From: an uncultured Eubacteriales bacterium
GTDB taxonomy: Bacteria; Bacillota; Clostridia; Christensenellales; DTU072
Direction of reading: 5' to 3'
Assembly (NCBI GenBank): GCA_902766965.1
Contig: CACXFJ010000047.1
Span: 3,165 to 67,164 of the forward strand
Length of the DNA: 64,000 nucleotides
How positions within the stretch are numbered: the first letter of the stretch is position 1; every line of letters starts with the position of its first letter. The notes under the pieces are model-generated. The model ran no database searches, was not told where the DNA came from, and worked only from the letters and a program-made list of their open reading frames with translations. A program made the position numbers and the translations under genes. Below, piece by piece: positions 1 through 51,479 of this stretch.

Positions 1-228
1 ATTTTCATATTTTACCGCCGTCGCCACCGACGCTAAATTTTCCTGCCGGACGGCATAGAGAGTACGCCTTGCCGAAATAATCAGAGGACCGCCGCGCGAA
101 CTTACTTTTTTAATATATATCGGACACCCTTCCGTTATACCGAGATTATCGAGCCTTGCGGAAAAATCGGAGTCGGGAATATTTTTTACGGCTAAGTATT
201 CGCCTTGAACAAAGTACGTTTTTTTCAC
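1..228 (-). CDS. feoA: FeoA-family small protein (ferrous iron transport protein A-like); 3' end runs off the window
   Basis: The minus-strand frame is open from GTG at 228 down to position 1 (76 codons, no stop). The translation is VKKTYFVQGEYLAVKNIPDSDFSARLDNLGITEGCPIYIKKVSSRGGPLIISARRTLYAVRQENLASVATAVKYEN. It shows the FeoA pattern RLxxLGIxxGxxI...GGPLIIxxxxxxxAVRxxxA. It is missing from the ORF track because it is truncated. The start choice (GTG, weak SD) is uncertain. Confidence 0.6.
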   Translation of the reverse strand, partial: MKKTYFVQGEYLAVKNIPDSDFSARLDNLGITEGCPIYIKKVSSRGGPLIISARRTLYAVRQENLASVATAVKYEN

Positions 229-230
229 GA

Positions 231-243
231 GATAATCATATTC
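231..243. promoter_or_regulatory. Fur-box-like half site (gataatcatattc) next to the feoA start
   Basis: It matches 11 of 13 positions of the 3' part of the classical Fur box GATAATGATAATCATTATC (GATAATCATTATC). It lies immediately upstream of the putative feoA start on the minus strand. This is a motif match by eye only. Confidence 0.3.
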
Positions 244-375
244 CGACGAAAAACAAATTGTGACGGCGGCAGCGTTTCCGATAAGTTTATCGGTAAGCTG
301 TTTTCGGCAAAATCCGATAAAAAACGACGGATAATTTTTCTTTCGTTTTTTCGCGAAACTGCCGATTTTCACATA

Positions 376-387
376 GGATAATTATCC
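376..387. promoter_or_regulatory. Perfect 12-bp palindrome GGATAATTATCC, a candidate operator
   Basis: The palindrome is read directly from the sequence. It is one of 8 GATAA/TTATC pentamers packed into 231..405 (others at 279-285, 287-292, 315-320, 329-334, 400-405). A second palindrome, CCGATAAgtTTATCGG, lies at 278..293. Confidence 0.35.
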
Positions 388-492
388 GATTTTTCGACGG
401 GATAAAAGGTTGCGGCGAGTAAATTTTTCCGTACTTCCGGTCACGCGTCGCTCACGCTTTATATATATTTATATAAATGATAAATTCGGCTA

Positions 493-521
493 TTGACACG
501 CAACGCGATACGCGTTATAAT
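493..521 (+). promoter_or_regulatory. Sigma-70 consensus promoter of the giant gene (TTGACA - 17 nt - TATAAT)
   Basis: TTGACA is at 493-498, followed by an exact 17-nt spacer, then TATAAT at 516-521. Both hexamers match the consensus perfectly. The spacer contains the inverted repeat ACGCGataCGCGT. The SD GGAG at 573-576 sits 8 nt before the ATG at 585. Confidence 0.7.
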
Positions 522-584
522 TAAACTGCGTAGAAAAAGGGTGAAGTACGCCCTTTAACAAAAAAGCCAAACGGAGAAAAGTAA

Positions 585-698
585 ATGAAACCGAAAAATC
601 AAGAATCCATATCGCGAAACGGAAGAAAGAAATCTTTCTTTGCGTATGCGTTGATGTTGTTGCTGGTACTGGCGTTGGTATTCAGCATCGCGGCGTGT
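585..698 (+). other. Signal peptidase II-type signal peptide with lipobox (Cys38) of the giant protein
   Basis: The n-region RNGRKK, the h-region FFAYALMLLLVLALVF and the lipobox SIAAC are followed by a Gly/Ser-rich tether (SQRPDDSGSGGGG). This is typical of Gram-positive lipoproteins. Confidence 0.8.
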
Positions 699-9600: not shown

Positions 9601-12600
9601 CGGAAGCCGTAGATAAGATGTCGGGCATATCCGAATCGGCAAAACAGGCTAATATCGAACGTTTTGCGTACGAATACTTCGTCGGAAGATTCAATTGGAG
9701 TACCGCCGAACGCGAAGCGTATATAGGTGTTTACAACGCGAAATTTACCGAAAGCGGCGGCAGCGTCCTTACGGCAAGTTCCGAAGCGTGGAAAGCTATC
9801 CGCGGCATGATAAACAACGAGTACGAGAATTTACTTTCCGCTCTGCGTTACGTCAACTCTTACGCATATAACGAGTTCGGCTTGAAGACCACGGGCAATC
9901 AGACTCTCAACGGTTCGGAAGAGGACTTTATAAGAGAAAACAACGTATTTATAATAGCCGACGGAAGATATAGCCGTTACGCAGAAGCGGTAAGCCATAC
10001 CTATAAGGCGATGGCGTGGAAGTATCTTGTGAGCAACAAGGCGATAGACGCCGAAGCCGCCGACGGATATTACACCGCCGCGGTAAATACTTACGTAAGG
10101 AACGCCAGAAACCTTCTTACCTTCCTCGAATACAGATACGCCGCCTGGAAGTATCTTAACGCCGACGCAAAGCGTATCCTCGCCACCACCGAAGACGGGA
10201 ACAAATTCGTGGTAAGAGCGACCACGGCGGAAGACGGTACGGTGACCTGGTACAAGACCGAAATTACCGAACAGTATCTCGTCACGTTAGAAGACTACTA
10301 CGACAAGTCGTATTCCGAAATACCGCAGCTTATCGTAGACGCGGCTAATAAGGAAGGCGTGCTTACGATAGGTTTCTTGTACGACGGTTCCATCGCGAAC
10401 GTCAGCGCGGAAATAGCCAACCTGTATCTTAAAGTAAACTTCGTCAAAGCGGGTATAAAGATAGCCGACAGCGACCTTTCGAGGACGAGACTTCATTACG
10501 TCTACAACGATTACGACGAAGTAACGGGACAGGAAGAAGTCACGGAAGCAGTCAACGACGAAAATCTCCGTAAGACCAACGGAGAATTCTCTCTTCTCGA
10601 CGAAAACTTCGGTTACGTCTACGCAAAACTCGACGTCGAATTCGGTCTTAATATGGAAGACGACGTACAGTACGACTTTACCGAACTCGTAAATTCGCTC
10701 CTTGCAAAACTCGGTCTTAACCTTAATATAAAAGGACAGACCTTGCAGATAGCGCCCGTACTCAGCATACTCAGCACGGTGGGCGACTATTTCAGAATTT
10801 CTCTCGAAGCGAGAGTAAATCTTTTCCGCCTCGTCAAAAAGGATTTAAGCGACACCGACATATCCCTTACCGTATATTCGCTCGACGCGAACGGAAAGGT
10901 TAAAGAAACGGTATTGCAACTGGTATTCGGAGCGGGACGCGAAGAAGACGGCACCGAATACGATTTCGTATACGTAGACGCCCACAGATTCAATATTCAG
11001 CGTCTGTATATAAAGAACGCGCTCGAACAGATTAAGAAACTGTTAGGCAACGCCAACGCCTCTTACGCCGTGTATCACGATATTCATAATGGCGGCTCGA
11101 TAGCCAAAGTCGTTATGGCAGCTATGATAGCCGACGTGCTTGCGGTAGACGACGGCGATTATTCCGACACCATATTCGGAGCATTCCCCTCTTACGCCGA
11201 CGGCAACGGCGGTAACAACCCCGAAGTCGACATAAATCTCGCTAAGTACGGAATGAGCGTTCAGCTCGCCGCAAACGCAATCTATACCTTACTCACCTTC
11301 TTGGGTATGGGCGACGTCAAGAGTATGATAAGCAAAGTCGGCTCGCCCGAAATAGCTCTCGACATATTCAGCGTGGCGAATTACGGCAAGGACGGCACCG
11401 TATTGAAGGATTACGACGACGGCGACAGAAACTTAATAGCCGTAAGACTTAACTTCGACAGCGTCAACGAAAACGGCGTCAGCACCGGAAGAGGAATAGG
11501 TCTCGAACTCGCCATAAGGAATATGGAATTGAGTTTCGCGCAGGATAAGAGAATAGACTTTAACGAAAACGAAGTATTAAAACGCGACGAAAACGGCGAT
11601 CCCGTCGACTTTGCCGAAGTGGACGGCATGTTGCCGAAGATTGCGTTAAAGACCACTATTCTTCTCGAAATCGACGCCGGCGTAACCAACGGAACCAACC
11701 TCTATCAGGAACCCGTCAACACGATAATGAAAAATTATCTCGGCGGACTCGTGATGGATATAGCTCTGTACATAGCCAACAAACAAAAAATAACCGTAGC
11801 CGTAGACATAGAAGCAAGTCTCGATTTAGGCAACGGCGAAGACAATAACTATCTCGCTCACCTCATATTCGGTTCTTCGCTCCGCGTAGCTCTCCGTATA
11901 TTCAGAGTGGGAGACAAGGTATCCACCGACCAAAAGAAAGAATGGGCGGTAATAACCTACTTCGGCGGCAATCTTTATATCGACCTGTCGGAACTTAACA
12001 GCGACAAGTTGTATCTTGCCGACGCGGGAAAACTCATTTTCGGCAACGGAAAGGACAAACAGTCGCAGGCGATGTTCGCCGCGTTCGACGCGCTTAACGC
12101 CGCAATAGGAGCGGTTAAGTTGGGCGTGGACGCCGAAATAAACTCTTCGGGATTATACCTTATCGTAAAGAAAGCCGCCATAGCGAGCATGCTGAAAGTA
12201 TTCGGTTTCGGCGGTTTCGATATGTTCCCCGACGCGGCTATTCAGCTCTACGTCAAAGGTATGAAAGTCGAAGACGGCGTAAACACTTTCGATATGGGGG
12301 TTAATCTCGCTCTCGGCGAAAATCTCGTCACGGGAAGTACCGAACTTAATCCGATATTAGGACTCGGTATGTCGATTAAGGGACTTTACGTAGGTTTCAG
12401 CGGACTCGATATTCAGGTATCCGACAGCGCGGAATATATCCGTATCGACCGTCTCGACACCGTCTACTTCTCCACCGAAATAATAATCAACGTTACCGAC
12501 GAAAAGGGTATCTACAAGTTGGGCGGACTGTTGCAGGTTCTTAAAGAGAACGGCTACTTCGACCTGGCGGCGACTCTCGGTATAGACACCGCGATAGATC

Positions 12601-37329: not shown

Positions 37330-37463
37330 ATTTCACCTCGCTGACGATATAAAAAATAGTAACAAAAAAACAAATACAAGTCAAACCCCGACGTCAAAAT
37401 GTTGCTTTTTTCATTTTCAGCGTATAAAATAACCGTGATAACGAAAAAACGGAGAAAGACAGA

Positions 37464-37868
37464 ATGATTACCGAAGAAGAATTAAGGAAAGCCTTTACGA
37501 AGGATAGATACGCAATAAAAAACGGAATAGAAATAGTCTGCGTGGACGAGAACGGTTCGGAAATAAGAGCGGAAATAAACGACAGTCATCTTAACGGCAA
37601 AGATATGGTTCACGGAGGAATGTTGTTTACCGTGGCAGACTTCGCTTTCGGCGTCGCCGCCAACTTTCGGCACCCCGATACGGTGACTTCGGGAGCCTCA
37701 ATTACATATTTAGCTCCTTGTTTCGATACAAAATACATAATCGCGAGAGGTAAAGAATTGTCGGCGCATAAGCACACTTGCGTGTACGAGGTAGTTATTA
37801 CCGACGACAAAGACAGAGTGGTGTGCCTCGCGCAACTTAACGGATTTATTAAAGAGGCGTTGTCGTAA
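37464..37868 (+). CDS. PaaI-family hotdog-fold thioesterase
   Basis: 134 aa. NGKDMVHGGMLFTVADFAFGVA shows the HGG...D motif of PaaI/YbdB-type thioesterases. The SD GGAGAAAG lies upstream of the ATG. Confidence 0.8.
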   Translation: MITEEELRKAFTKDRYAIKNGIEIVCVDENGSEIRAEINDSHLNGKDMVHGGMLFTVADFAFGVAANFRHPDTVTSGASITYLAPCFDTKYIIARGKELSAHKHTCVYEVVITDDKDRVVCLAQLNGFIKEALS

Positions 37869-37922
37869 ATCGGACGTTTCCGATAAAACAACGTTATCGT
37901 TTATAATAAATGAAGAAAAAAG

Positions 37923-37951
37923 TTGCAAAAATATAATAGCTGTGCTAAAAT
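37923..37951 (+). promoter_or_regulatory. Putative promoter of tRNA-Pro (TTGCAA - 17 nt - TGcTAAAAT, extended -10)
   Basis: TTGCAA is at 37923-37928 and TAAAAT at 37946-37951, preceded by TGc. The -10 element ends 13 nt before the tRNA 5' end. Confidence 0.5.
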
Positions 37952-37964
37952 AGCATACGAAAAG

Positions 37965-38041
37965 CGAGGAGTAGCGCAGTTTGGTAGCGCGCTTGGTTCG
38001 GGACCAAGAGGCCGTGGGTTCGAATCCCGTCTCCTCGACCA
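37965..38041 (+). tRNA. tRNA-Pro (anticodon CGG), CCA encoded
   Basis: Manual cloverleaf: acceptor CGAGGAG/CTCCTCG, D-arm GCGC-agtttggta-GCGC, anticodon arm CTTGG-ttCGGga-CCAAG, variable loop aggcc, T-arm GTGGG-TTCGAAT-CCCGT, discriminator A, then CCA. The total is 77 nt. Confidence 0.9.
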
Positions 38042-38078
38042 TACAAAAAAGGTAGGCGTTTTGCCTACCTTTTTTGTA
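38042..38078 (+). terminator. Rho-independent terminator after tRNA-Pro
   Basis: Perfect extended palindrome tacAAAAAAGGTAGGC-gtttt-GCCTACCTTTTTTgta, with the core stem at 38051-38057/38063-38069 and T6 at 38070-38075. Confidence 0.85.
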
Positions 38079-38730
38079 TGCTATCGGTGATAAGGACACG
38101 CCTTTTGGGGACGAACCAAGCGCAAAGAGGGGTCCCCGAAAATTGTAAATTTTTGGGGAAAAGGAGATACGGAGAGAAAAGTGCGACTGCCCGCAAGGGA
38201 GGTCGCAGAAAAGCGACAGTATCGACGCGGTTCGGGACCAAGAGGCCGTGGGTTCGCAAATTTCGCAGAATTGCGAAATCTGACGAGCGAGAAAACACGT
38301 ATTCTAAAAGTACGCAAAACGTGACCGTATTAAACTTAAAAAAGGACAAAAGCGAATACGAGTGATCCCGTCTCCGATTTGCCTACCTTTTTTGTATGCT
38401 CTCGGTGACGGGTAAAGAACGGCTCTTTGGTATAAAAAGGGTAACCCTGAAAATCGCAGATTTTTAGGGAAAAGGAGATACGGAGAGAGAAGTGCCACCG
38501 CCTATAATGACGGTGGCAGAAAAGCGACAGTATCGACGCGGGTTCGCAAATTTCGCAGAATTGCGAAATCTGACGAGCGAGAAAACACTTGTTCTGAAAG
38601 TACGCAAAACGTGGCCGTATTAAACTTAAAAAAGGACAAAAGCAAATACGAGTGATCCCGTCTCCGATTTTTCCTGTCCTTTTTGTATGCTCTCGGTGAC
38701 GGGTAAAGAACGGCTCTTTGGCATAAAATT
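38063..38730 (+). repeat. Tandem array of about 318/291-bp units (2 full copies plus a partial third) with tRNA-like features
   Basis: The anchor gcctaccttttttgtatgct lies at 38063 and 38381. A degenerate third copy (tcctgtcctttttgtatgct) ends at 38691. The 3' halves of units 1 and 2 are nearly identical apart from a 21-nt indel. The 5' halves differ in sequence but keep three hairpins. See the findings. Confidence 0.85.
38229..38256 (+). pseudogene. 28-nt fragment identical to tRNA-Pro positions 37995-38022 (anticodon arm to T-loop), embedded in repeat unit 1
   Basis: ggttcgggaccaagaggccgtgggttcg is identical in both places. The tRNA 3' piece atcccgtctcc recurs at 38365-38375 and 38655-38665 (identical to 38024-38034). 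Confidence 0.85.
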
Positions 38731-38753
38731 GACTGTATAAATTTTGCAAAAAG

Positions 38754-38780
38754 AAACGGTAGGCGTTGTGCCTACCGTTT
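38754..38780. terminator. Hairpin closing the repeat array; probable terminator of the minus-strand operon
   Basis: AAACGGTAGGC-gttgt-GCCTACCGTTT. The core ggtaggcgttgtgcctacc differs by 1 nt from the tRNA terminator core. On the minus strand it is followed by cttttt. Confidence 0.55.
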
Positions 38781-38883
38781 GCAAGTATTTTTGCCGATAA
38801 AAATAAAGTACTATTTTTAGCCGTGGTTATGAAATTTAATATAAAATCTACGAGTTTTGATAGTTTTATCCTATTTTTTACGG

Positions 38884-39432
38884 TTAGTTTTTGCGATTTT
38901 GTTCCGAGGCGGTTTTCGTGTCGGCTATGCGTTTGGCGCGGAGGGCTTTCTCCATCTCGAACAAATCGGTTTTCTGTTGGGGGGTGAGGACGGAATAGGG
39001 GACGTAGTATTCCTTGCCGTTTGTCGTGCTGAATTCTGCCACACGCTTTTTTAAGTTTATCAAACTAAGGACGCCGCTTTCGGCAAATGGTTTTTCTTTT
39101 TTGAAAGAGGAAACGGAGTAGTACCACTCGCCGTCGGCGCGTTTTTCCGCGGAAAGATTGATTTTGCCTCGAAGTCCTCTGTTGTAGCCTTTGAAAACGC
39201 CGATAAAAGGCGCGGCAATCAGGACGATTTCGCCGATTAGTATGACGATTATTCCGATAACGCGGACGAGAGGAGTTACGATTCGGAAATAGGTATAGAA
39301 CGCGGTATACAACCCTATGATAATAACGAATATCGCGAACGCGACGGAGAAAACGAACGCGGAAAATTTTCCGATTATCAAGTCGATGCGTTTGCCTTTA
39401 TAGTTACTGTCGAATTCTACGTTGAAGTTCAT
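38884..39432 (-). CDS. Hypothetical membrane protein (2 predicted TM helices plus a soluble C-terminal domain)
   Basis: 182 aa. The hydrophobic stretches are FSAFVFSVAFAIFVIIIGLYTAFY and VIGIIVILIGEIVLIAAPFIGVF. An AAGGA SD lies 7 nt upstream. It is the last gene of the minus-strand operon. No family was recognised with confidence. Confidence 0.65.
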   Translation of the reverse strand: MNFNVEFDSNYKGKRIDLIIGKFSAFVFSVAFAIFVIIIGLYTAFYTYFRIVTPLVRVIGIIVILIGEIVLIAAPFIGVFKGYNRGLRGKINLSAEKRADGEWYYSVSSFKKEKPFAESGVLSLINLKKRVAEFSTTNGKEYYVPYSVLTPQQKTDLFEMEKALRAKRIADTKTASEQNRKN

Positions 39433-39775: not shown

Positions 39776-42700
39776 TTAAGCTTCGGCTCCGCTTTCGGCT
39801 TGTCTGGATAAAGGTACGTACGCAACACCGTATTTTGAAGAGGCGTCGTCGTAAGTAAGTATAATCTGGTCGTCGCCGTAAGTGCCGACTTCGAGTTCGT
39901 ACTCAACGTCGTTTATATAGAACACGTAATATCCCGTTCCTTCGGGACTGAGTCCGACGTAAAGAACGTTTACGTATTCGCTGTCGCCCGCAAGTTTAAC
40001 TTTGAATTCGTCTGCGGCGGCGATTATTTCGACGGTTCCGGCGGAGTTTTTCCACGTTCCGAAGTATTTTGCGGGGAGATGAACTTCCGCTACCTGAGAA
40101 AGGTTTACGTTAACGTCGGCGTCTACGCTGTAAAGGTTGACGAACCTGCCGCTTGCGTTTTCGGAAAGGATAATAAAGTAAGCCGCGTCGTTGTGGACGA
40201 ATTTAAGTTCTTTTCTGGTCTTGTCGTAAGTTGCGTTATCTACCGCTAAGGTGTAACCGCGACCGAGTTTTACTTCGGCGGTTCCGTCGGCGGCGAGTTT
40301 AGCTTCATACACCTTATTATCCGCGTCTACGTAGCGCCACGTTCCCACGTATTCTTTGGGTATTACCTGTAATTCGGCTTTTTGCAGGTTGACGAGCAGT
40401 CCGTTGTTGTCGTACATAATCATCATCGGGTTGCCGTAGGAGTTAATCCAGTACATAATGTAGGTCTTGTATTCGCTGCCTTCGAGGTCGAACGCATATC
40501 CGTAATCGGACAAGGTGAAGGGAACGACTCTGTCTTCGTAGCTGTAAAGGTCGCTGTAAACGGGGTTGCCGTCGGCGTCTTTGCCGGTCTGAATATAGTA
40601 ACTTGCCGTAAGGGTAATAGACGTGTCGGTGATTACGAAACGGAAACTGTAAGGCTTCTGCCCTTCGCCGAAGTCGGTCACGACAGATTCCCAAATGCCG
40701 ACGTAGTTGTTGATTACGCTGTCCACGAGTTTTACGATATAATTTTGCGACATCGTGCCTATCTGTAAAGAAGTGCCGTCCTGACGGAGAACTATCATAT
40801 AGTTTTCGGTGACGCCGAGCGTACCGACAAAGCCTTCGGTTTCGGAATAGCTCGTCGGGACGAAAGTCATACCGTTAATCGTAATCTTGCCGTATGATAT
40901 GTTGACTTTTTGTTTGCCGTCGTCGGAAACGTACAGCCCTACGTATTTTTTCGGTATTTCTATGCCGACGTCGTCGGAAACGTAATCGACGTAGAAACGG
41001 ACGTATTCCGCATTGTCGCGGAGTTCGATTACCATTAAGAATTTATTTCCGGCGTCGTCTACTCCGGGAACGAGGTTATAGGTAGTGTTGCCCACGAGGA
41101 CGACGAGACCTTCTCTGTCGCCGCTCGAAAGGAGGGTGGCTTCGGTATCGTTGCACCACATTACGTAGGATTGAATTACGAACTTAAAATGCAAGTCCTC
41201 TGCGGCGTTATCGATAGACCATACCCCTCTGTACTCTTCCGGTATCTCGAACACTTCGGTAATTACGTTGGTCAAGGTGATATTAAGGGTATAATCTTCG
41301 CTTTGGATAAGGAGCTGTTTGGAACTTAACTTCATTATCGTTATCGACTTATCGTTCCACTTTCCCGTGAAGAAATCGGGTTCGTTTGCGGAAGAGCTCG
41401 AAGAATAGCGCAGGTTTTCTACGACGATGCCGTTAAGAATAAATCCGGCGTCGTCGCACTGACAGAAGTTGCCGTAGTCGTCCTTGTACTGTCCTTTGAA
41501 GGGGTCGAGTACGCTTGTGCGTTCGGCGTGGGCAAAGTCGAGTTCGTTTATAATATCGCTGAAATCGGTCTCAAAGTCGTAAGTTAAGGTAACTTCTTCG
41601 GTGATTCCGTAAGTGGCGTAGGTAAATTTAACTCTGTAAAGAGTGTCGTTTTTTATTTCTACGGTGAAGTCGGTGGCGTATTGGAAATAGGACTTTTCGT
41701 CCGCGCCCTCGCCGAAACAAGGAGCGATTATTCCCGCGTAGTCGCGGCTCCGTAAAACGAAAGTTTTTACGCCGTCTTTTTCGCCGGTGAACTTCATGAG
41801 TTCGGGTTTGAAGCTTTCGAAATCGGAAGTAATTTCCGCAATGTTGCTTACTGCGACGGGGTCTTTAAGAGTAATCGCTTTCTTGTCGTCCACTACCTGA
41901 ACGAAGAAAGGATATACGAGAATTCCGTCTCCCTTATGCAGAGCTTTGAAGCCGGTTTCTTCGTTGGGGAAGGCGCTGTAAATTACGTCGTCGCGTCTGA
42001 TATACTTCTTGTAATCGGTGTCCTTGTAATAAGGATCGTCGGCGTGGTCTTCGTCCACGTTGAGTTCGTGTCCCTGATGTCTTATCGAATAGGCGGTGGT
42101 CTTGTTGGCTTTTTTCAACGCCGCCGCAAGAACAGCGTGTTCCGCCGTGGTGGGATAAGGACTGTATCTTTCGGCGGGGACGGTTGCCGTCCCGACGTCG
42201 CCGATGGCGAAATCGTAGGTGGACACATACTCGGCATCGCCTCTTTTTATAAGAGCGGTTTTGATATGCAAACCTACGGGAATATCGTCGGAATTTACGC
42301 TTATTTCGAATTCAGCGATGGTTTCGGTGTATCCGGTGATGGGTTGTGCGACGTTCTTTCCGTTCTCGGAAACGTTATCGAGAGCGTATTTGCCGTCGGA
42401 AAGATAAAGTATATCGTCGGCTTTCAGAAGAAGGAAGGGATTATAATAATTGTCGAACAGCGCGTCCGAAATCAATTCGACAATCGTGTTGTCGGCGGTG
42501 TGACGGATCGAGGTAAGGTTGCGCTTGTTTTTACCGTAAACGTAGTCGTAGTAAACTTCTCCCGTTTCCGCGTCGGTTTCGATTTGCGAAATCATGTCTT
42601 TTGCGAAAATGGTCTCTACGATAAACGATTTGTTCCATTCGGGGTGATTGACGACGTCGTAAGAGTATCTTCCGTCGATACGCATATATTTTTGCAGGTT

Positions 42701-43279
42701 GGCGAAAGCGGCGGCGGTCATCGTTCTGACGAAAACCGGTTCTACTTTTGCGTTAAGGGAATAAAGGAAAGAGGCTTTTCCGTTGGCGAAAGAGATTAGT
42801 TCGCCGTTTACTTTAATTCCCGTCACTTTATATCCGTCTTTCGCCGCCGCAGACACGGATACGGTTTCTCCGTCCGCGTAGGCGTCACCGTTGGCGGGCG
42901 CGCCGACTATTAAATCGCAGGCTTCGGTTTCCGCTATTTCCAAAGTGGGTTTTCCGAAATCTACTTTGACGGAAAGGTCGCTTTTAACGGTGATTTTCAA
43001 GGTGTATTTGCCGTTTTCGTTCTCGAGAGAGGAAGTGACGTCTTCGTCGTTTACCGTGACGGAAGAAAGGTAAAATCCCGTCTTCGGCGTAATCTCCAAA
43101 GCTATCTCCGATCCGTCGGTAAGCTTGGTCGAATCGACTTCGCCGACGAAGGATACCGAGCCTTTTTCGGCGTCGAACTCTAACTTTGCCGAATAGGTGT
43201 TGTTCTCGCAGGCAAACGCCGTAACCGCAACGCAAACTACGACTATCGCCAACAATATCACGTTAATTCTCTTTTGCAT
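39776..43279 (-). CDS. Large surface lipoprotein (1,167 aa) with N-terminal InlB-B-repeat-like modules and C-terminal tandem GxW beta modules
   Basis: The signal peptide MQKRINVILLAIVVVCVAVTAFAC has the lipobox T-A-F-A-C. N-terminal modules include ALEITPKTGFYLSSVTVNDEDV and VSVSAAAKDGYKVTGIKVNGEL. Five to seven C-terminal modules open with [IL]PxxY[VF]GxW (IPEEYRGVW, IPKKYVGLY, INNYVGIW, IPKEYVGTW, LPAKYFGTW). Confidence 0.9.
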   Translation of the reverse strand: MQKRINVILLAIVVVCVAVTAFACENNTYSAKLEFDAEKGSVSFVGEVDSTKLTDGSEIALEITPKTGFYLSSVTVNDEDVTSSLENENGKYTLKITVKSDLSVKVDFGKPTLEIAETEACDLIVGAPANGDAYADGETVSVSAAAKDGYKVTGIKVNGELISFANGKASFLYSLNAKVEPVFVRTMTAAAFANLQKYMRIDGRYSYDVVNHPEWNKSFIVETIFAKDMISQIETDAETGEVYYDYVYGKNKRNLTSIRHTADNTIVELISDALFDNYYNPFLLLKADDILYLSDGKYALDNVSENGKNVAQPITGYTETIAEFEISVNSDDIPVGLHIKTALIKRGDAEYVSTYDFAIGDVGTATVPAERYSPYPTTAEHAVLAAALKKANKTTAYSIRHQGHELNVDEDHADDPYYKDTDYKKYIRRDDVIYSAFPNEETGFKALHKGDGILVYPFFVQVVDDKKAITLKDPVAVSNIAEITSDFESFKPELMKFTGEKDGVKTFVLRSRDYAGIIAPCFGEGADEKSYFQYATDFTVEIKNDTLYRVKFTYATYGITEEVTLTYDFETDFSDIINELDFAHAERTSVLDPFKGQYKDDYGNFCQCDDAGFILNGIVVENLRYSSSSSANEPDFFTGKWNDKSITIMKLSSKQLLIQSEDYTLNITLTNVITEVFEIPEEYRGVWSIDNAAEDLHFKFVIQSYVMWCNDTEATLLSSGDREGLVVLVGNTTYNLVPGVDDAGNKFLMVIELRDNAEYVRFYVDYVSDDVGIEIPKKYVGLYVSDDGKQKVNISYGKITINGMTFVPTSYSETEGFVGTLGVTENYMIVLRQDGTSLQIGTMSQNYIVKLVDSVINNYVGIWESVVTDFGEGQKPYSFRFVITDTSITLTASYYIQTGKDADGNPVYSDLYSYEDRVVPFTLSDYGYAFDLEGSEYKTYIMYWINSYGNPMMIMYDNNGLLVNLQKAELQVIPKEYVGTWRYVDADNKVYEAKLAADGTAEVKLGRGYTLAVDNATYDKTRKELKFVHNDAAYFIILSENASGRFVNLYSVDADVNVNLSQVAEVHLPAKYFGTWKNSAGTVEIIAAADEFKVKLAGDSEYVNVLYVGLSPEGTGYYVFYINDVEYELEVGTYGDDQIILTYDDASSKYGVAYVPLSRQAESGAEA

Positions 43280-43883: not shown

Positions 43884-46800
43884 TTGATGAACAGTTACAG
43901 AAGAAAATACGGCGCGTGGCTCGTATCGATAATCATCGTTCTGACGGCGTTCGTTGCGTTTAACGTTTTGTGCGTAAGTAACTTTTACGCCAATGCTGTT
44001 AAGACGGGGGACGTAGTGCCGACCGCAAACAGATTCTTTACCGTGGACGGTATCGAAGGGCTTTCCGAATTGAAAAAGGCTTACTTTAACGGTAACGTGA
44101 CTTCGGCGAACGATTATAAGACGGCTTCTTACGAAGGAGACCGTTGGATAATAGTCGAGTTCGACGGCGACACCCTTTACGACGCCTTCGAAAAGAGCGG
44201 ATACGCGAGTTTTTCCGAATACTGCGCCACCGACGCCGCCGACAAACTTAAAAACGACATCGACGAAAAGCACGCCGAATTCCTTTCGGAGTTGGACGAG
44301 AACGAAATAGAATACCGTTTCAAATATTCCTACTCCACGTTCAATAACGGCGTGGCGGTGAAAGTTAATTCCGGCGCGTATAACGTAATAAGAAAAATGA
44401 GCGGCGTCAAGAACGCGTACTTTTCCGAAAGATACGCTCAGCCGAAAGTCGCTACCGTAAACGACGCCAACGTTTATACCACCGGTATTTACGACTCCTC
44501 CGACCTCGATTATAAGGGCGAAGGAATGGTAGTAGCGATACTCGATACCGGTCTCGATTATTCCCACGAGGCTTTCCGTAACATGCCCGCCGACGCAAGT
44601 AAATGCTGGTCTAAAGAAGACGTCGCGAGAAAAATGGCGGCAAGCACTCGTTTTAACGCGAAAGCTACCGCGGACGAAGTTTATTACAACCTTAAAGTTC
44701 CGTTCGCGTACGACTACGCCGACGACGATCCCGACGTTTATCCGTCTTATTCCACCCACGGCACCCACGTCGCGGGTATAGTAGGAGGTAAGAGCGACTA
44801 CGTCGTAAACGAAGCCACCGGCGAAAAGTTCATCGGCGTGGCTCCCGAAGCGCAGCTCGTAATCTGTAAGGTATTTACCGACAATTTGGACAGCGACTCG
44901 TTAGGCGGAGCCGACACCACCGATATTCTCGCGGCTGTAAGCGACTGCGCGGAGCTCGGAGTAGATGTAATCAACATGAGCTTAGGTTCTTCGGCAGGGT
45001 TCGCCGACGAAAAGAGCAACACCGTTCTTAACGAAATCTACGCGAGAGTGAAACAGGCGGGAATAAGTCTCGTCGTCGCGGCAAGCAACGATTACTCTTC
45101 CGGTTTCGGCGGCGGCAACGGAACCAACCTCGCCACCAACCCGGACAGCGCGACGGTAGGTTCTCCGTCCACTTACGACGCGGCTTTGTCGGTAGCTTCC
45201 ATCAACGGACAAAAAGCTACCTATATTCAGGCTAACAACGATGAAAATCAGGTTGCGTTCATCACCACTTCTTCCGACGAAAACGGAAACGAATATAAAT
45301 TTACCGAACTTCTCTACAGAGTAGCGGGTAAAGATTACGCCACCTACGAAGGCAACCTCAACTTTAAGTACGTGGTAATCGGCGGCGTGGGACGCGCCAC
45401 CAACTACAACGCGGCTATAAAGAGAGAAATAAACAACAAAGAGGGTTACGACGGCGTAATAGCTCTCGTAAAGCGCGGAGATACGACTTTTGCGGAAAAG
45501 GTTCAGACCGCCATGAACAACGGAGTCGACGCCTGTATTATTTACAACAACGTATCCGGTACGATAAGAATGTCCTTAGGCGAAGTCGAAGACCCCGTGC
45601 CGACCTGTTCTATCAGCATGGACGCGGGCAAAATTTTCGTCGATAACGCGGTAAGAAACGTAGGAACTATTCAGATTAACAAGAACTTTATGGCAGGTCC
45701 GTTCATGTCCGAATTCTCGAGCTGGGGCCCTCTGCCCGATTTGCAGTTAAAACCCGAAATCACCGCTCACGGCGGCGAAATCACGAGCGCGGTACCCGGC
45801 GGATACGATATTTACAGCGGTACCAGTATGGCGTCTCCGAATATGGCGGGCGCGGTATCTTTGCTTCGTCAATACCTCAAAGAAAGCAACCCCGGACTTA
45901 CCGGTACGGAACTCACCGCGAGAGTAAATCAGGTTCTTATGAGCACCGCTACCATCGCGAACAACGAAGAAGGCAATCCTTATTCGCCCCGTAAACAGGG
46001 CGCAGGACTTGCCGGTATCTACAACGCGATACACACGGAAAGTTATATTACCGTCCTCGACGCCGAAGGGAAGGAGAGAGATAAGACGAAGATAGAACTT
46101 TTCGACGACAAGAAGAAGACCGGCGAATACGTTCTTGACTTCGTCATCAACAACATTTCCGGAAAGACGGAATATTACGACCCGAAAACCTACGTTATGA
46201 CGGAAACTTTGGCTTCCGATAACAAGACCGTCGCCGAAAAAGCTCATATGCTCGACGACAGCGACATTACCTATTACGTCAACGGAACGGCGCACAGCGG
46301 CAAGATAGAAGTCCCCGCCAACGCGAAACTCTCCGTAAAGATAGTGATAAAATTGAGCGCGGCGGCTAAACAGTATATAGAGACCGGCTTTACTAACGGT
46401 ATGTACGTAGAAGGTTTCGTATCTTTGGCAGCCGACGGAGCCGCCGGCACGAAAGTCACGATAGGTCTTCCGTACCTTGCTTTCTACGGCGACTGGAACG
46501 ACGGACCTTTGTTCGACTACGACGCGTACGAACTCGCCGAAAGTCAGAAGGATACCGGCGTACCCGAAGAGGACAAACTCAAAGCCAGCGCGGCGGAAAC
46601 CAGACCGCTCGGAAGATACTTCGACGATCAATATATAATCGCTCTCGGTTCTTATCTCTACAGTATGGACGAAAGCGAAGTTCAGATTTATCCCGAAAGA
46701 GATAAAGCGGCAGTATCCATGTTCGATACCAAGGGACAAAGAACCATTTACGAAATGTATATGGTATACGCCGGACTGTTGCGTAACGCGGCTTATATGA

Positions 46801-49800
46801 CCGTCACCGTCACCGACGCCGCCACGGGTAACGTGGTTTATAGCGAAAGGCAGGAAAACGTAAGTAAGTCTTACGCTGCCGGCGGCGGAAATCGCGGCGC
46901 TATAATAATGATGGAGATGAAGCCGAGTACCTGGGGCCTTGCAAACAACAACACGTATTTAGTCTCCTTAAAGGGAGAACTCGAGGGAGTTTACGGACAG
47001 GAGAGAGACGAGAAAGTAACCAATCCCGAAAGGGGAACGTTCGACTTCCGGTTCACCGTGGACTACGAAGCTCCGCAGGTTCTCGATTATCGTATCCGTT
47101 TCGATTCCTATAAGGACGAAAACAAGCAGATAAAGTATAAAATTTATATGGACGTGGACGTCTTCGATAACCAATACGTCATGGACGTAATGCCCTGCTA
47201 TATAAAACAGGACAAGGGCGGCAAAAACGTGCTTACGCTCGCCACGAAGTATCCCGTTCCCGTATACGGCGGAAAGGGAGAGACGTCCACCGTTTCTTTC
47301 GAAATCACCGATATTTACGAAGATTACGTCAAGACCGGTAAGTTGTATCTTGCGGTGGACGACTATGCGATGAATCAGACGACCTACGCCGTTTCCGCTC
47401 CCGCGGCTATCGATTATCCCGACGAAGTAATACTCGCCACCGACGAAAAACTCGTCGACACCGGCAAAACGGGAAAGAACACGTCGGGCGACGGCGCGGA
47501 ATATAGAATTTACGAACTTTCCTTAGCTCCGAACGAAGTGTACAAGCCGTCCGTTGCGGTCACTCCCGCGAGCGTTGCTTCCAGAAGTTTGTCTTATTAC
47601 GTCAAGAGCGGCAGCTCCTACGTTAAAGCCAACGAAGAAGAAATATTCGGCTCCAAGAACGGTATCGCCACCGTATATCTCTGCGACGTCGAAGATTCCG
47701 CTTCGCAGACTATTTACGCACGCATAGACGTGACTGTGGAGGGACAGGCGAAACAGCTCCCGAGACTTAACAAAATCACGTTAGAACCCGTCGTGAACGG
47801 AAAAGACTATGTGGTTAATTTCGACGGAACTTTGCCGTCGTTCGAAATGTATCCGAATCAGACCATTCAGTTCAAGGTCAAAGCCGACCCGTGGTATTTA
47901 AGCAATATATCCTACGAATGGAAGTCGGCTAACCCGTCGGTAGCAAGCGTGGATAAGATAGGCAATATCACTTCGCATAAGAAAGGCACCGCGATGATTA
48001 CCGTTTCCGTCGTCGGCAACGCCACCGCAAGTAAGAGCGTAAGCGTCACCGTAGGCGACGAATACAGAATAATAAACTACACCCTTTACGACTATTACGG
48101 AGGAGAAAACGTAGAAATACCCGAAAGCAAGAACATTATGTATCTTGACGAAGAGTGTTTCCAATACAACACCACCGTTAAGAGAATAGTGTTCCCGTCG
48201 ACTCTCACCGAAATACCGAAAGAAGCCTTCAAAGGCTGTACCAACCTCGAAGAAATCGTAGTTCCCGGACAATGTATCGTCATTCATAAAGAGGCGTTCA
48301 AGGACTGCGCAAAACTTAATAAAATCACTTTCGGTAAGTTTGTGGATAAAGATAAAGTAGAACACCCCGAATATACCGCCGCGATTACGATAGGCGATTA
48401 CGCCTTCAGCGGTTGTACTTCGCTTGCAACAATCGAAAACTCCAAGCGTCTTACCACCGTAGGTAACGGAGCTTTCGAAAAGTGTACTTCTCTCGAAACC
48501 ATCGACATCAGCGAACTCAGAGTCACCGGCAAGGGAGTGTTCAAAGGCTGTACCAAGTTAAGTAACGTAATTACCGACGAGAACACGAATATCGGCGAAG
48601 ATATGTTCAGCGGATGCTCCGCTTTGAGAACTTTCGATTTTTCGGGAGCTTATATAAGCGCGGGCGCTTTCGGAGGAACCGGACTTACCGAATTCAACTT
48701 CACCGATAAATCGCAACTTACCGGAATAGGACAACAAGCTTTTGCCTCTACCCTTAATCTCATTTCGATTACTCTTCCCGCGGGAAGTTACGCAATAGAA
48801 AGCGGAGCCTTCTCGGGCAGCGGCTTACAGACCGTCGTTCTCGACGATAACGCAGACATAAAGTTCGGCACAAGCACTCCGTTTACGAGTTGCGACAGGT
48901 TAGGTAAATTCATAGTTGCCGACGGTAGCGTCAACTACTCCGCGGGCGACGGCTCGACCGTGAGCGATTTAGGCGTGTTATATAATAAGGATAAGACCGA
49001 GCTTATCGCCGTACCGACCGGGAAGACCGTCGTTAAGGTTCTTGACTCGGTGACGAAGATAAGAAGCGGAGCGTTGAGCGGTTTAAGCGGACTTACCGCG
49101 TTCGACGCAAGCGGCGCGACCGAGATAGGCAATTACGCTTTCGCGGGCAGCAGCGTGACCGAAGTTACTCTTTCCGAAGAATTGACGTCGCTTCCCGAAG
49201 GCGTGTTCAGCGGCTGTTACAACCTTACGAAAGTAAGCGGAGTAAAGAACGTGACCGTCGTCGGCAGCAACGCCTTTAAGGACTGCGGCAGACTGACTTC
49301 CGTCGATATGCCCAAAGTAGAAGAAGCGGGCGATTACGCTTTCGCAAACTGCGGAATAAGAGCTTTCGTCGCTCCTCATCTTAAAAAAGCGGGCAATTCC
49401 GCTTTCAGAGAAAGTAAGATTACCGAAGCGAACTTCCCCGAGCTTACGGCTATGGGCGAAAGAGCATTCTCGAATATTTCCGCTCTTACGAGCGTAACCT
49501 TCGGCGGCGTGACCGAAATGGGCGATTACGCTTTCTATAACAGCAACAATATCGTCGACGCTACGTTCGGCGACGGAACGACTAAAATAGGCGATTACGC
49601 TTTCGCTTCCGCGACGAAGAGAGAGACCCTCACCGACGTGACGTTACCCGACGGCGTGACTTATATAGGAACGGCTGCGTTTATGCACGCAAGCAACCTT
49701 ACTTCGATAAATTTGAGCGGAGTCAAGACCGTCGAAGCGTTCGCGTTCAGATACGCCGCTAAGTTATCTTCCGCTAGGTTAAGCGGAATAGAGCATATAG

Positions 49801-51479
49801 GAGCTCGCGCGTTCGAAAGCACCGCGTTCACAGCGGCAGACCTTGCGGCGGCGAAATACGTAGGCGAATACGCGTTCCTGTCCGTACCTTTGACGAGCGT
49901 TACGTTTAATAGCCTTAAAGTAGTAGGCATAGGCGCGTTCGTCGATACCAAACTCACTACGGTAACGCTCCCCGCAAGTTTCAACGACAGAAACTACGTT
50001 TATAGCTGGGACAAGCTCGACGAAAAGGGCAGAGTGGAAGAAACGAGATACAGAAACGAACCTTCCTACGGAGCAGGCGCTTTCAGCTATATCGACACCC
50101 TTAAAGAAATACGCGTAGCGGAAGGCAACGAGGGCTTTAAGTCGATAGACGGCGTACTTTACTCGGTGGTTAAGGTTACCGAAAACGGACAAACGGTCGA
50201 AAAAGGACTTGTACTCGAACAATATCCCACCGCAAAGGAAGGACAAAGCTACGTCGTCGCCGACAATACGTTGGAAATCGGCGCGTACTCGTTCGAAGGG
50301 GTATCGACGTTGGAAAAAATAACCTTCCCGTATACCGTTAAGTCCATAGGAAGCTACGCTTTCTTCGACAGCACCGTAAACGATTATACCTTCAACAGCG
50401 TTCAGGCTCCCGCCCTTAAAGCGGAATACGTGGACGCGAGCGTGTACAAAAACGCCACTTTGCAGAGCGAATACTTCCTCTATCAGATATTCGGCACCGA
50501 CAGCGGCGTATGCATCGGCGGAACCGTTTATTACGCAAACTTCTACGATTACGTCGGAAGAAGATTGTACGCGGACAGTTTCGCAAGTTACGAAGCTCCG
50601 AGTTTCGGACTTAAAGTCACCTATCCGAAGAACGGAAAGGGATACGACACGGTAATCTGGAAAAACTTCTTCGAGACCGTAACCGTGACCGACGAAATAC
50701 TCCCCGAAGATACCACGCACGAAGCTATCGCGGCTATCGACAAAATTTCTTCCGTCATGAGCAACGACGCTATCGCGGCGGCTCCCGATATGGCTTCGCT
50801 TAACGAGATAATCGAAGCGGTAAAACAGGCAAGACTTGCTTACAATAAAATAACCTCTACCGAACAGCTCGCTCTCGTTGCCGACAAGAACGGAGTTTTG
50901 CTCGCCGCAGAAAAGGCGTTGAGAGACAAGAAAGCCGCTTTGGGCTATCCCGTAAACGTGGACAGAATAGAGTTAGCTCAAATACCGACCAAAATTCAGT
51001 ACACCGCAGGCGAAAGTTTCGACCCGACGGGTATGGCGATTAAGGTAATCTATCAAGACAGCTCCGAAGTTCTCGTTTCCGCGACGGAAACCGTTATCGA
51101 CAAGACGGTTCTTGCGGAAGGAGACGAATACGTCACCGTAACCTATACCGAACGCGGACAAAGTTACAGCGTGCAGGTATTCGTAAACGTGGTAGCGGGA
51201 CAGGAAGAAAAACCCGTTGATCCCGACGATAAAGGCGGAAAAGACGGCTTGTCCACCGGAGCTATCGTCGGAATAAGCGTAGGATGCGGATTAGCGGTTC
51301 TTGCAGGCGTAGCCGTGGCGGTAATCCTTATTCTTCGCAAGAAAAAGATAGGAATTTTCGGCAAGGTAAAGACCGAAGATATAGTTCTCCCCGAAGAGGA
51401 AATTCCGGCGAACGAAAATACCGAAGAAACCCTTTCCGAAACGGAAAATAAAGACAACGATACCAACGAAGAAAAATAA
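43884..51479 (+). CDS. Cell-envelope subtilisin-like serine protease (peptidase S8 with PA-domain insert), fused to Big_2-like, BspA-type LRR and Big_3-like domains, with a C-terminal TM anchor
   Basis: The triad appears in subtilase order: Asp in VAILDTGLD (codon 44544-44546), His in HGTHVAG (44757-44759) and Ser in GTSMASP (45825-45827). A PA-like insert GVIALVKRGDTTFAEKVQTAMNNGVDACIIYNN lies between His and Ser. A Big_2-like module is at about 47850-48055. About 30 BspA-type LRRs (IPxxAFxGCxxLxxIxxP) span about 48060-50400. A Big_3-like module is at about 50968-51195. The TM helix GAIVGISVGCGLAVLAGVAVAVILIL plus RKKK is at about 51247-51347. An N-terminal signal/anchor is present, and a GGGGGG SD lies upstream. 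Confidence 0.93.
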   Translation: MMNSYRRKYGAWLVSIIIVLTAFVAFNVLCVSNFYANAVKTGDVVPTANRFFTVDGIEGLSELKKAYFNGNVTSANDYKTASYEGDRWIIVEFDGDTLYDAFEKSGYASFSEYCATDAADKLKNDIDEKHAEFLSELDENEIEYRFKYSYSTFNNGVAVKVNSGAYNVIRKMSGVKNAYFSERYAQPKVATVNDANVYTTGIYDSSDLDYKGEGMVVAILDTGLDYSHEAFRNMPADASKCWSKEDVARKMAASTRFNAKATADEVYYNLKVPFAYDYADDDPDVYPSYSTHGTHVAGIVGGKSDYVVNEATGEKFIGVAPEAQLVICKVFTDNLDSDSLGGADTTDILAAVSDCAELGVDVINMSLGSSAGFADEKSNTVLNEIYARVKQAGISLVVAASNDYSSGFGGGNGTNLATNPDSATVGSPSTYDAALSVASINGQKATYIQANNDENQVAFITTSSDENGNEYKFTELLYRVAGKDYATYEGNLNFKYVVIGGVGRATNYNAAIKREINNKEGYDGVIALVKRGDTTFAEKVQTAMNNGVDACIIYNNVSGTIRMSLGEVEDPVPTCSISMDAGKIFVDNAVRNVGTIQINKNFMAGPFMSEFSSWGPLPDLQLKPEITAHGGEITSAVPGGYDIYSGTSMASPNMAGAVSLLRQYLKESNPGLTGTELTARVNQVLMSTATIANNEEGNPYSPRKQGAGLAGIYNAIHTESYITVLDAEGKERDKTKIELFDDKKKTGEYVLDFVINNISGKTEYYDPKTYVMTETLASDNKTVAEKAHMLDDSDITYYVNGTAHSGKIEVPANAKLSVKIVIKLSAAAKQYIETGFTNGMYVEGFVSLAADGAAGTKVTIGLPYLAFYGDWNDGPLFDYDAYELAESQKDTGVPEEDKLKASAAETRPLGRYFDDQYIIALGSYLYSMDESEVQIYPERDKAAVSMFDTKGQRTIYEMYMVYAGLLRNAAYMTVTVTDAATGNVVYSERQENVSKSYAAGGGNRGAIIMMEMKPSTWGLANNNTYLVSLKGELEGVYGQERDEKVTNPERGTFDFRFTVDYEAPQVLDYRIRFDSYKDENKQIKYKIYMDVDVFDNQYVMDVMPCYIKQDKGGKNVLTLATKYPVPVYGGKGETSTVSFEITDIYEDYVKTGKLYLAVDDYAMNQTTYAVSAPAAIDYPDEVILATDEKLVDTGKTGKNTSGDGAEYRIYELSLAPNEVYKPSVAVTPASVASRSLSYYVKSGSSYVKANEEEIFGSKNGIATVYLCDVEDSASQTIYARIDVTVEGQAKQLPRLNKITLEPVVNGKDYVVNFDGTLPSFEMYPNQTIQFKVKADPWYLSNISYEWKSANPSVASVDKIGNITSHKKGTAMITVSVVGNATASKSVSVTVGDEYRIINYTLYDYYGGENVEIPESKNIMYLDEECFQYNTTVKRIVFPSTLTEIPKEAFKGCTNLEEIVVPGQCIVIHKEAFKDCAKLNKITFGKFVDKDKVEHPEYTAAITIGDYAFSGCTSLATIENSKRLTTVGNGAFEKCTSLETIDISELRVTGKGVFKGCTKLSNVITDENTNIGEDMFSGCSALRTFDFSGAYISAGAFGGTGLTEFNFTDKSQLTGIGQQAFASTLNLISITLPAGSYAIESGAFSGSGLQTVVLDDNADIKFGTSTPFTSCDRLGKFIVADGSVNYSAGDGSTVSDLGVLYNKDKTELIAVPTGKTVVKVLDSVTKIRSGALSGLSGLTAFDASGATEIGNYAFAGSSVTEVTLSEELTSLPEGVFSGCYNLTKVSGVKNVTVVGSNAFKDCGRLTSVDMPKVEEAGDYAFANCGIRAFVAPHLKKAGNSAFRESKITEANFPELTAMGERAFSNISALTSVTFGGVTEMGDYAFYNSNNIVDATFGDGTTKIGDYAFASATKRETLTDVTLPDGVTYIGTAAFMHASNLTSINLSGVKTVEAFAFRYAAKLSSARLSGIEHIGARAFESTAFTAADLAAAKYVGEYAFLSVPLTSVTFNSLKVVGIGAFVDTKLTTVTLPASFNDRNYVYSWDKLDEKGRVEETRYRNEPSYGAGAFSYIDTLKEIRVAEGNEGFKSIDGVLYSVVKVTENGQTVEKGLVLEQYPTAKEGQSYVVADNTLEIGAYSFEGVSTLEKITFPYTVKSIGSYAFFDSTVNDYTFNSVQAPALKAEYVDASVYKNATLQSEYFLYQIFGTDSGVCIGGTVYYANFYDYVGRRLYADSFASYEAPSFGLKVTYPKNGKGYDTVIWKNFFETVTVTDEILPEDTTHEAIAAIDKISSVMSNDAIAAAPDMASLNEIIEAVKQARLAYNKITSTEQLALVADKNGVLLAAEKALRDKKAALGYPVNVDRIELAQIPTKIQYTAGESFDPTGMAIKVIYQDSSEVLVSATETVIDKTVLAEGDEYVTVTYTERGQSYSVQVFVNVVAGQEEKPVDPDDKGGKDGLSTGAIVGISVGCGLAVLAGVAVAVILILRKKKIGIFGKVKTEDIVLPEEEIPANENTEETLSETENKDNDTNEEK

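Follow-up and report, generated by a model that had tools for sequence, protein, structure and literature searches.

In our study, a stretch of 64,000 nucleotides from an uncultured Eubacteriales bacterium (contig CACXFJ010000047.1 of assembly GCA_902766965.1; here called the window, and counted from its first nucleotide) was found to contain an array of 2.1 tandem units behind a tRNA-Pro(CGG) gene. The array is a real, structured and evolutionarily maintained element, and a divergent variant of a known, poorly understood kind. The anatomy of the units, the conservation and covariation that they show, their allelic variation among strains and their likeness to the tyrT locus of Escherichia coli were established directly. 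We give about an even chance to the reading that the array is a gene-less tandem repeat of a tRNA operon, of the RtT type, and the units are probably a processed, structured RNA. The finding was filed as one that appears to be built and to work like RtT, and not as a demonstrated member of the Rfam family RF00391.

The units opened with the T-arm and the acceptor 3' strand of the tRNA in antisense; a loop or a module A, the sense nucleotides GGTTCG, an insert of about 108 nt and the 3' piece of the tRNA then followed in that order. The insert contained a covarying hairpin on an invariant base and a purine-rich spacer whose length is fixed, and it ended in CGAGUGAU. The order of tRNA, terminator and unit was sense, antisense and sense-with-insert. 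The units ranged between 184 and 318 nt in length and were gene-less.

Unit 1 of the window (all features of the units lie on the + strand) began with a decayed antisense piece, TCGGTGA (38084–38090), which pairs with TCTCCGA at 38371–38377. It was followed by an antisense copy of the tRNA anticodon arm (38100–38123; tRNA positions 22–47, with GGA kept sense), which was 83% complementary to the 28-nt tRNA piece of the same unit and paired with it in the minimum free energy (MFE) fold. Module A (38134–38228) contained hairpin P (38134–38158), the purine-rich AAAAGGAGATACGGAGAGA, hairpin Q (38183–38206) and GCGACAGTATCGACGCG. The 28-nt piece (38229–38256) was an exact copy of tRNA-Pro positions 30–57, from the anticodon stem to TTCG of the T-loop, and overlapped the first copy of module C (38252–38366; GTTCG...CGAGTGAT, 115 nt), which opened with the extended hairpin GUUCGCA-A-AUUUCGCA, loop GAAU, UGCGAAAU-C-UG-A-CGAG (38252–38288). 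The tRNA-Pro 3' piece (38365–38375; positions 59–69) was then followed by GA in place of TCGACCA, and by the right terminator arm with its T-run (38378–38399), the left arm being absent.

In unit 2, the antisense piece TCGGTGACGGG (38402–38412) was found to pair at 10 of 11 positions with CCCGTCTCCGA, either at 38367–38377 or at 38657–38667. AAAGAAC and module A' (38414–38541; hairpins 38445–38469 and 38494–38517) were followed by the second copy of module C (38542–38656) and the tRNA-Pro 3' piece (38655–38665). The stretch 38668–38728 contained the right terminator arm in a second allele, a third antisense piece (38693–38703) and the start of a shortened third unit, and a bidirectional terminator (38754–38780) closed the array.

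Much of this anatomy had been noticed in a preliminary description made by reading the sequence, and our comparison confirmed the observations themselves. Nucleotides 38229–38256 were identical to 37995–38022 of the tRNA gene at 28 of 28 positions; by our own arithmetic, a chance repeat of a 28-mer in 64 kb is expected about 3e-8 times. The tRNA continuation ATCCCGTCTCC, which occurs at 38024, 38365 and 38655, resumed at 38365 after 108 nt (38257–38364, inside the first module C), and the T-loop A at 38023 had no counterpart in unit 1. Unit 2 contained the same insert (96% identity) and lacked exactly 21 nt, GTTCGGGACCAAGAGGCCGTG, of the anticodon-arm copy. The unit ends matched the tRNA 3' end and the right terminator arm, with 25 nt swapped for GA. 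The antisense copy of the tRNA 3' third that opens each unit had been overlooked.

Module C is conserved. Further copies of the module were recovered by pattern scans and synteny walks (the loci are given L numbers), and it was found as a conserved sequence of about 112–116 nt, from GTTCG to GAT, in all six lineages. All copies began with GTTCGCAAAT, followed by the hairpin and then (A)ATCTGACGAG, and all full copies ended with (T/A)(T/A/C)CGAGT(G/T), followed by T-loop positions 59–60. In the purine-rich middle the sequence was not conserved and the length was fixed. The module was carried by two metagenome-assembled genomes (MAGs) named "Christensenella sp." (L033, L035) and by a Clostridia MAG (L046/L047) whose thioesterase was only 54% identical. 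It was also present behind tRNA-Arg(CCG) in the metagenome contigs L051 and L054, behind tRNA-Glu(CTC) in L057, as 5.3 nearly identical tandem units of 184 nt, and behind two further tRNA 3' ends (L052 and L055/L059). The L057 array was located at 10586–11585 on the − strand, its last copy stopped within the conserved hairpin, and the contig came from the same metagenome as L053, a strain of the window's species. Module C was always on the tRNA strand and was always followed by the 3' piece of the local tRNA from T-loop position 59. Single-copy units ran to NCCA and then to an intrinsic terminator, like a tRNA gene; CCA was reached in the units of L033, L051, L052, L054 and L055. A covariance model built from eight units (R1) gave exactly two matches in the window, at 38229–38377 (113.9 bits) and 38506–38667 (111.3 bits).

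Other collections were scanned for the module. An 18-mer scan of genome contigs gave 14 matches, of which only those in L033 and L035 were real, and pattern scans did not find the insert away from tRNA genes. Module C was absent from 2.9 million viral contigs; two relaxed viral scans gave chance matches or none, and a BLAST search of a phage collection matched only the tRNA-Pro piece. The 17-mer CTGACGAGCGAGAAAAC was rejected as a sign of the module in viral contigs, 13 of its 15 matches falling in a single family of unrelated phage protein genes (KLTSEKT) and 2 of 15 in unrelated sequence. In L011–L025 (IMG/VR) it was a chance match, which codes KLTSEKT in a small conserved phage protein ending ...DPNSRINKSLRAW.C.

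The hairpin of module C was found to contain the invariant base GUUCGCA/UGACGAG and a covarying distal stem. All 118 of 118 cells paired (100%), six pairs were changed on both sides, and the covariation score was reached by 0 of 500 shuffles, with no slid register coming close. The module A hairpins P and Q also kept their pairing between units 1 and 2 through compensatory changes; in one of them a single C-G pair was exchanged for U-A, and in the other the sequence was replaced wholesale. In the MFE folds, a closing helix between the first 12 or so nucleotides and the tRNA-derived 3' piece was present in most of the ten units tested, as was a hairpin closed by GAAC...GUUC; L051 and L054 folded differently, and L047 only in part. 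Because the folds close this hairpin with GAAC and GUUC, GTTCG is a strand of a stem and not a T-loop. A T-stem of 5 bp, GCGGG/CCCGT, had been suggested for unit 2; it was not conserved, L035 having GTTGTTCG and L002 having GCCGTTCG, and the actual pairing was of GUUC with an upstream GAAC or of UUCG with a downstream CGAG. The closing helix of window unit 2 contained 10 of 11 pairs (−18.5 kcal/mol; 2 of 500 shuffles were as good), and three lineages retained a pyrimidine opposite one U of the helix. The few G-U wobble pairs were on the + strand, which would fit folding of that strand either as RNA or as single-stranded DNA. A box C/D-like or K-turn pairing of CUGA with GUGAU did not fit when compared by eye.

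The conservation and the pairing bear on the alternative that the array is functionless debris, made by fold-back and tandem duplication through template switching at the palindromes of the terminator and T-arm and left to neutral drift. The order sense, antisense, sense is the product expected of two template switches at palindromes, the alleles vary among strains, and the arms are decayed in the window's species. Against it, one and the same insert, unvarying at its ends, constant in length and with a covarying hairpin, was kept across lineages (with the flanking thioesterase at the 54% identity given above) and across five tRNA types. Independent duplications would not have it in common. 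We consider debris quite unlikely.

The antisense copy was examined by aligning the opening 45 nt of every unit with positions 49–73 of the local tRNA in reverse complement. Most units outside the window's species were found to carry a clear antisense copy of the T-arm and the acceptor 3' strand; in these, and in L035, it covered local tRNA positions of about 49–72. For the long matches in L047, L035, L051, L054, L055 and L057, 0–9 of 1000 shuffles were as good, and the RtT of E. coli, aligned to tRNA-Tyr, gave 0 of 1000. The copy was altered only in two to four central bases of the T-loop (TTC to GA, AG or AAA), and the altered bases face the insert point of the sense copy.

This plan is shared with the tyrT locus of E. 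coli, which contains 178-bp repeats, each with the 3' end of tRNA-Tyr; the repeats behind tyrT/tyrV, one of which yields the rtT RNA (rttR), are the prototype of the RtT type. The repeats were reportedly sequenced in the late 1970s, and rtT RNA is said to have been described in 1991. RtT RNAs are released from tRNA-operon transcripts, and in Actinobacillus they adjoin the tRNAs for Asn and Lys (PMC4986893). The rttR RNA corresponds to a single repeat unit in the tyrT operon (PMC3318445), and the mode of action of rtT RNA was still termed unknown in a 2024 preprint (bioRxiv 10.1101/2024.07.17.603846). In our analysis, the tyrT locus of E. coli K-12 contained four units, each with GGGGAAGGAT (antisense), GAGAAsC...AAGGTTCGA, a 68-nt insert and ATCCTTCCCCCACCACCA, and RF00391 scored them at 133–138 bits. 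The consensus structure of RF00391 includes the antisense:sense closing helix and the UUCG:CGAA pairing. The window units and RtT are alike in standing directly 3' of a tRNA gene, on the same strand and in tandem. Both RtT and the units described here open with the antisense T-arm and acceptor 3' strand, in which central T-loop bases are changed to GA, followed by GGTTCG(A), the insert and a tRNA 3' piece from position 59; both contain the closing helix, the UUCG:CGAR pairing and the motifs GAGAAC and GAGU(A/G)AUCC. A bridge between the two was given by the C unit of L052, which RF00391 aligned end to end (28 bits, E = 0.0018 in 411 nt, below the gathering threshold of 45 bits), matching the closing helix, GAUGAGAAC, CGAGUUAUCC and CCA.

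The differences were also clear. The insert was 108 nt in the window, its interior formed by the covarying 8-bp hairpin and the purine-rich spacer, whereas it was 68 nt in E. coli; the 3' piece ran through positions 59–76 in E. coli and through 59–69, without CCA, in the window. The window also contained the extra module A, an intrinsic terminator between tRNA and units, and tandem copies without CCA. RtT belongs to Gammaproteobacteria and tRNA-Tyr, whereas the present units were found in Clostridia (Christensenellales-like MAGs) with tRNA-Pro, tRNA-Arg and tRNA-Glu.

Several results weigh against an RtT-like, RNA-level reading. RF00391 did not match the window units at E ≤ 10 (a 291-nt search), nor, L052 excepted, the units of L002 or the other units tested, and model R1 found no RtT units of E. 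coli (L070, E ≤ 10). Because the two models miss each other's units, the link to RtT comes down to architecture and a single bridge that scores below the threshold, and convergence could account for the shared shell since the T-arm is universal. The antisense copy of the window's species was decayed (GGTGACGGG...GAAC) and by itself not above chance, 105 of 1000 shuffles being as good for window unit 2 and 749 of 1000 for unit 1 of L002. The closing helix of window unit 1 was weak (21 of 500 shuffles as good), and the window units contained neither CCA nor the top three acceptor pairs. An intrinsic terminator with 18-bp arms separates tRNA-Pro from the first unit, and a scan of the + strand over 37400–39300 found no promoter-like site inside the units; given both, transcription may be low. 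Truncated copies and partial tRNA copies were also found at the borders of strain-specific islands, which hints at a role in the DNA itself.

The surroundings of the tRNA gene were as follows. The gene (37965–38041, + strand) was intact with CCA encoded, it was detected by ARAGORN and by the Rfam tRNA model (66.9 bits), and with these it was the sole tRNA gene of the window. A sigma-70-like promoter, TTGCAA-17-TAAAAT with TG (37923–37951, + strand), was the only + strand promoter-like site within the scanned region. The terminator hairpin at 38040–38080 contained perfect arms and T-runs on both sides.

If the RtT-like reading is right, the + strand would be transcribed after the tRNA, and the antisense and sense arms would pair into a closing helix resembling the acceptor and T-arm, from which the insert would branch off. 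The enzymes that process tRNA ends may then free a stable structured RNA of about 170–300 nt, as reported for rtT RNA. The array itself would grow, shrink and swap modules through recombination of the repeated tRNA-derived segments.

The preliminary description had explained the units as copies of tRNA-Pro and its terminator that acquired an insertion in the T-loop. Part of this model stands, as the units do derive from tRNA-Pro 3' material and the terminator and their similarity is broken in the T-loop. The idea of a local acquisition was not borne out; among related bacteria, module C was found downstream of no fewer than five different tRNA genes. A tRNA-Pro pseudogene with a mobile or self-cleaving insertion, a ribozyme or an intron, at T-loop position 57/58 was found to be very unlikely. 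It is true that all copies carry the insert at one and the same point of the T-loop, that genuine tRNA sequence stands before it in window unit 1, L004, L005, L033 and the second L046 copy, and that CUGACGAG resembles a hammerhead box. However, no ribozyme or intron family matched at E ≤ 10, the sequence contained neither a U-H cleavage site before the hairpin nor a GAAA/stem III arrangement, and 108 nt are too short for a group I or group II intron. Removal of the insert leaves a T-loop of 6 nt, the 5' flank of most units is not derived from tRNA beyond GTTCG, the units are not seen as tRNA by ARAGORN or the Rfam tRNA model, and the insert was not encountered away from tRNA genes.

The string CTGACGAG was found to be no hammerhead core, as the core is incomplete and without an Rfam match. 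The likeness is that CUGACGAG follows the hairpin as CUGANGA follows stem I; only this box was present, CAA and not UH stands before the hairpin, the GAAA/stem III part is missing, and Rfam gave no match at E ≤ 10. ARAGORN and the Rfam tRNA model detected only 37965–38041 and nothing in the units; no cloverleaf was found in the units or the related loci, and tRNA or pseudo-tRNA was rejected as their identity. A coding sequence was also rejected, since a change in hairpin length shifts the GTG frame, which in L046 meets TAA (by eye), and no open reading frame (ORF) was conserved. In the window, a 95-aa ORF starting with ATG (38078–38365, + strand) spans unit 1 without a counterpart in unit 2, and a GTG-started frame (38182, + strand) is open through both units and the 21-nt indel.

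Strain differences were studied in assemblies of the same species, which were reached through the upstream thioesterase gene and whose flanks were 98–99% identical. The number of units and the module content were found to vary, with about six layouts behind the tRNA including the window's own. L001 and L003 contained module A followed by an unbroken tRNA 3' half (positions 30–76), the full terminator, a short hairpin linker and then the insert. In L002 the version with the linker came before the one with module A', L004 contained one unit, and the L001 array stopped inside the insert and passed into unrelated DNA. The DNA 3' of the array was entirely different between strains. An assembly artefact had been named as a possible source of the 28-nt identity; an independent ENA assembly (L005) contained the same unit 1, and four Logan short-read contigs broke off in that part of the tRNA which the 28-mer repeats, as is expected of a repeat. 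The repeat is therefore no artefact, and it is one source of assembly breaks in its own right.

These layouts also bear on the earlier proposal that gene conversion with the live tRNA is still visible in unit 1. Exchange with tRNA-derived copies is ongoing, as L001 and L003 attest, but the 28-nt piece is best read as a remnant of the 47-nt tRNA 3' half of those strains. If about 100 nt were lost between two copies of GGTTCG, the 28-nt piece would be left, and a fresh gene conversion is therefore not needed. The breakpoints suggest that the strain differences arose by recombination between tRNA-derived segments, namely GGTTCG, the 3' piece and the terminator arms.

In a serious alternative, the array is one of recombination sites. 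The units would be miniature non-autonomous integrative elements or the fused ends of deleted ones, as in cis-mobilizable elements (CIMEs); the tRNA 3' piece would be an att direct repeat and module C a conserved arm beside attR. In a variant of this, the arms would fold in single-stranded DNA into the duplex end of a tRNA gene, as in CTXphi attP(+) and integron attC, with the enzyme acting in trans. We consider a recombination-site role at the DNA level possible though doubtful, and it keeps that standing because of the terminator, the lost CCA and the tRNA copies at island borders. Partial tRNA copies of three kinds were found (those from the anticodon loop, those from the T-loop and those at the CCA end), and they lie at the borders of strain-specific DNA. 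In L033 a restriction-modification island is placed exactly after the CCA of a pseudo 3' end, L051 and L054 diverge right after CCA, and in L055 the array borders on an element of 12 kb that encodes a tyrosine integrase and a Rep-like protein. The truncated copies of module C retain the hairpin end, the near-identical tandem copies of L057 also agree with this explanation, and only its folded single-strand form requires that the element also contain the core in inverted orientation.

Against the recombination-site explanation, no integrase, transposase or Rep was found among the proteins checked of the 64-kb window, the units are short and gene-less, and module C is missing from the viral contigs. 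One enzyme would have to recognize five different tRNA ends, and scars would not be expected to show compensatory changes such as those of the module A hairpins. The tyrT repeats of E. coli, which have the same design, are a stable chromosomal feature that yields RNA. The att repeats and CIME remnants resemble the array in their partial tRNA 3' copies located 3' of an intact gene, in tandem accretion and in strain-specific islands nearby, whereas the present units are gene-less, contain an internal antisense copy of the target, have no recombinase nearby and share one module at five tRNAs. CTXphi attP(+) and attC resemble it in imperfect hairpins, in a distal stem where structure counts over sequence, in single arm mismatches and in short arrayed units; they differ in the R'/R'' core (GTTRRRY/RYYYAAC), absent here, as is an integron integrase nearby. 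No link to dif was seen at the array, in searches not aimed at dif sites.

Particular kinds of mobile element were considered and rejected. An integron attC was not supported, since the R''/R' core RYYYAAC...GTTRRRY is absent and GTTCGCA/TGCGAAC does not fit it; an Rfam scan at E ≤ 10, with families that we take to include attC, gave no attC match. A miniature element of the IS200/IS605 type (PATE), which would have similar subterminal hairpins at both ends, was rejected as only one hairpin, that of the left end, is conserved. For an element bounded by tRNA att sites, the direct repeat of the tRNA 3' end is present but there is neither recombinase nor cargo between the repeats. A filamentous-phage satellite was rejected, the Rep-like protein of L055 giving a weak match to PF23343 (E = 3e-4, below the cut-off) and nothing in PHROGs, with a normal tyrosine integrase at the other end of the element.

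The L055 element extends over 51–11990 (about 12 kb). The tyrosine integrase lies at one of its ends, and it also encodes a methyltransferase, an Xre regulator and the Rep-like protein. It ends at a tRNA 3' copy which starts in the anticodon loop, directly upstream of the C unit. The restriction-modification island of L033 (4106–5936, − strand) contains a helix-turn-helix protein, a DpnI-like ORF and a methylase fragment, and separates the CCA of the pseudo-tRNA 3' end from the terminator copy that follows.

A wider reading, which we regard as rather unlikely, is that RtT-like units are a gene-less class across phyla that rebuilds itself from the local tRNA, whose 3' third would be copied once in sense and once in antisense to enclose a conserved cargo. 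Such units would travel from one tRNA operon to another as folded single strands, or would act as mimics of tRNA ends that tune the maturation of the neighbouring tRNA and attract islands. A second, deeply divergent lineage on the RtT plan, in gut Clostridia and at several tRNAs, argues that the plan is selected or repeatedly generated. It also gives comparative leverage on the essentials of RtT, which are the closing helix, the place of the insert in the T-loop and the constancy of its length. In addition, the units account for assembly breaks at tRNA genes and for structural variation at the strain level, and they flag unstable tRNA loci where islands such as restriction-modification systems and integrative elements accumulate.

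A second type of module, GGGCGG...CCGCCC with nested hairpins, was present in L044 (6533–6790) and on the reverse strand of L052 (about 6545–6700). It follows the same logic of sense and antisense tRNA ends, with a 23-nt hairpin insert in the T-loop in L044, and was detected neither by model R1 nor by Rfam. In L046 (4450–5090), two truncated 5' copies of tRNA-Pro were interleaved with the intact gene; one contained positions 1–32, and the other contained positions 1–26, a 44-nt hairpin in place of the anticodon arm, positions 37–57 and module C.

Among the neighbouring genes, the strain-specific DNA 3' of the array, which was absent in L001 and L004, contained a 1,167-aa InlB B-repeat protein (39776–43279, − strand) and a 2,531-aa subtilase (S8) with PA, immunoglobulin-like and leucine-rich repeat domains (43884–51479, + strand). 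At 585–35609 on the + strand, the window contained a single ORF of 11,674 aa without a Pfam family on record. This ORF was kept at 11,636–11,674 aa in related MAGs, even where the neighbouring genes were only about 60–70% identical.

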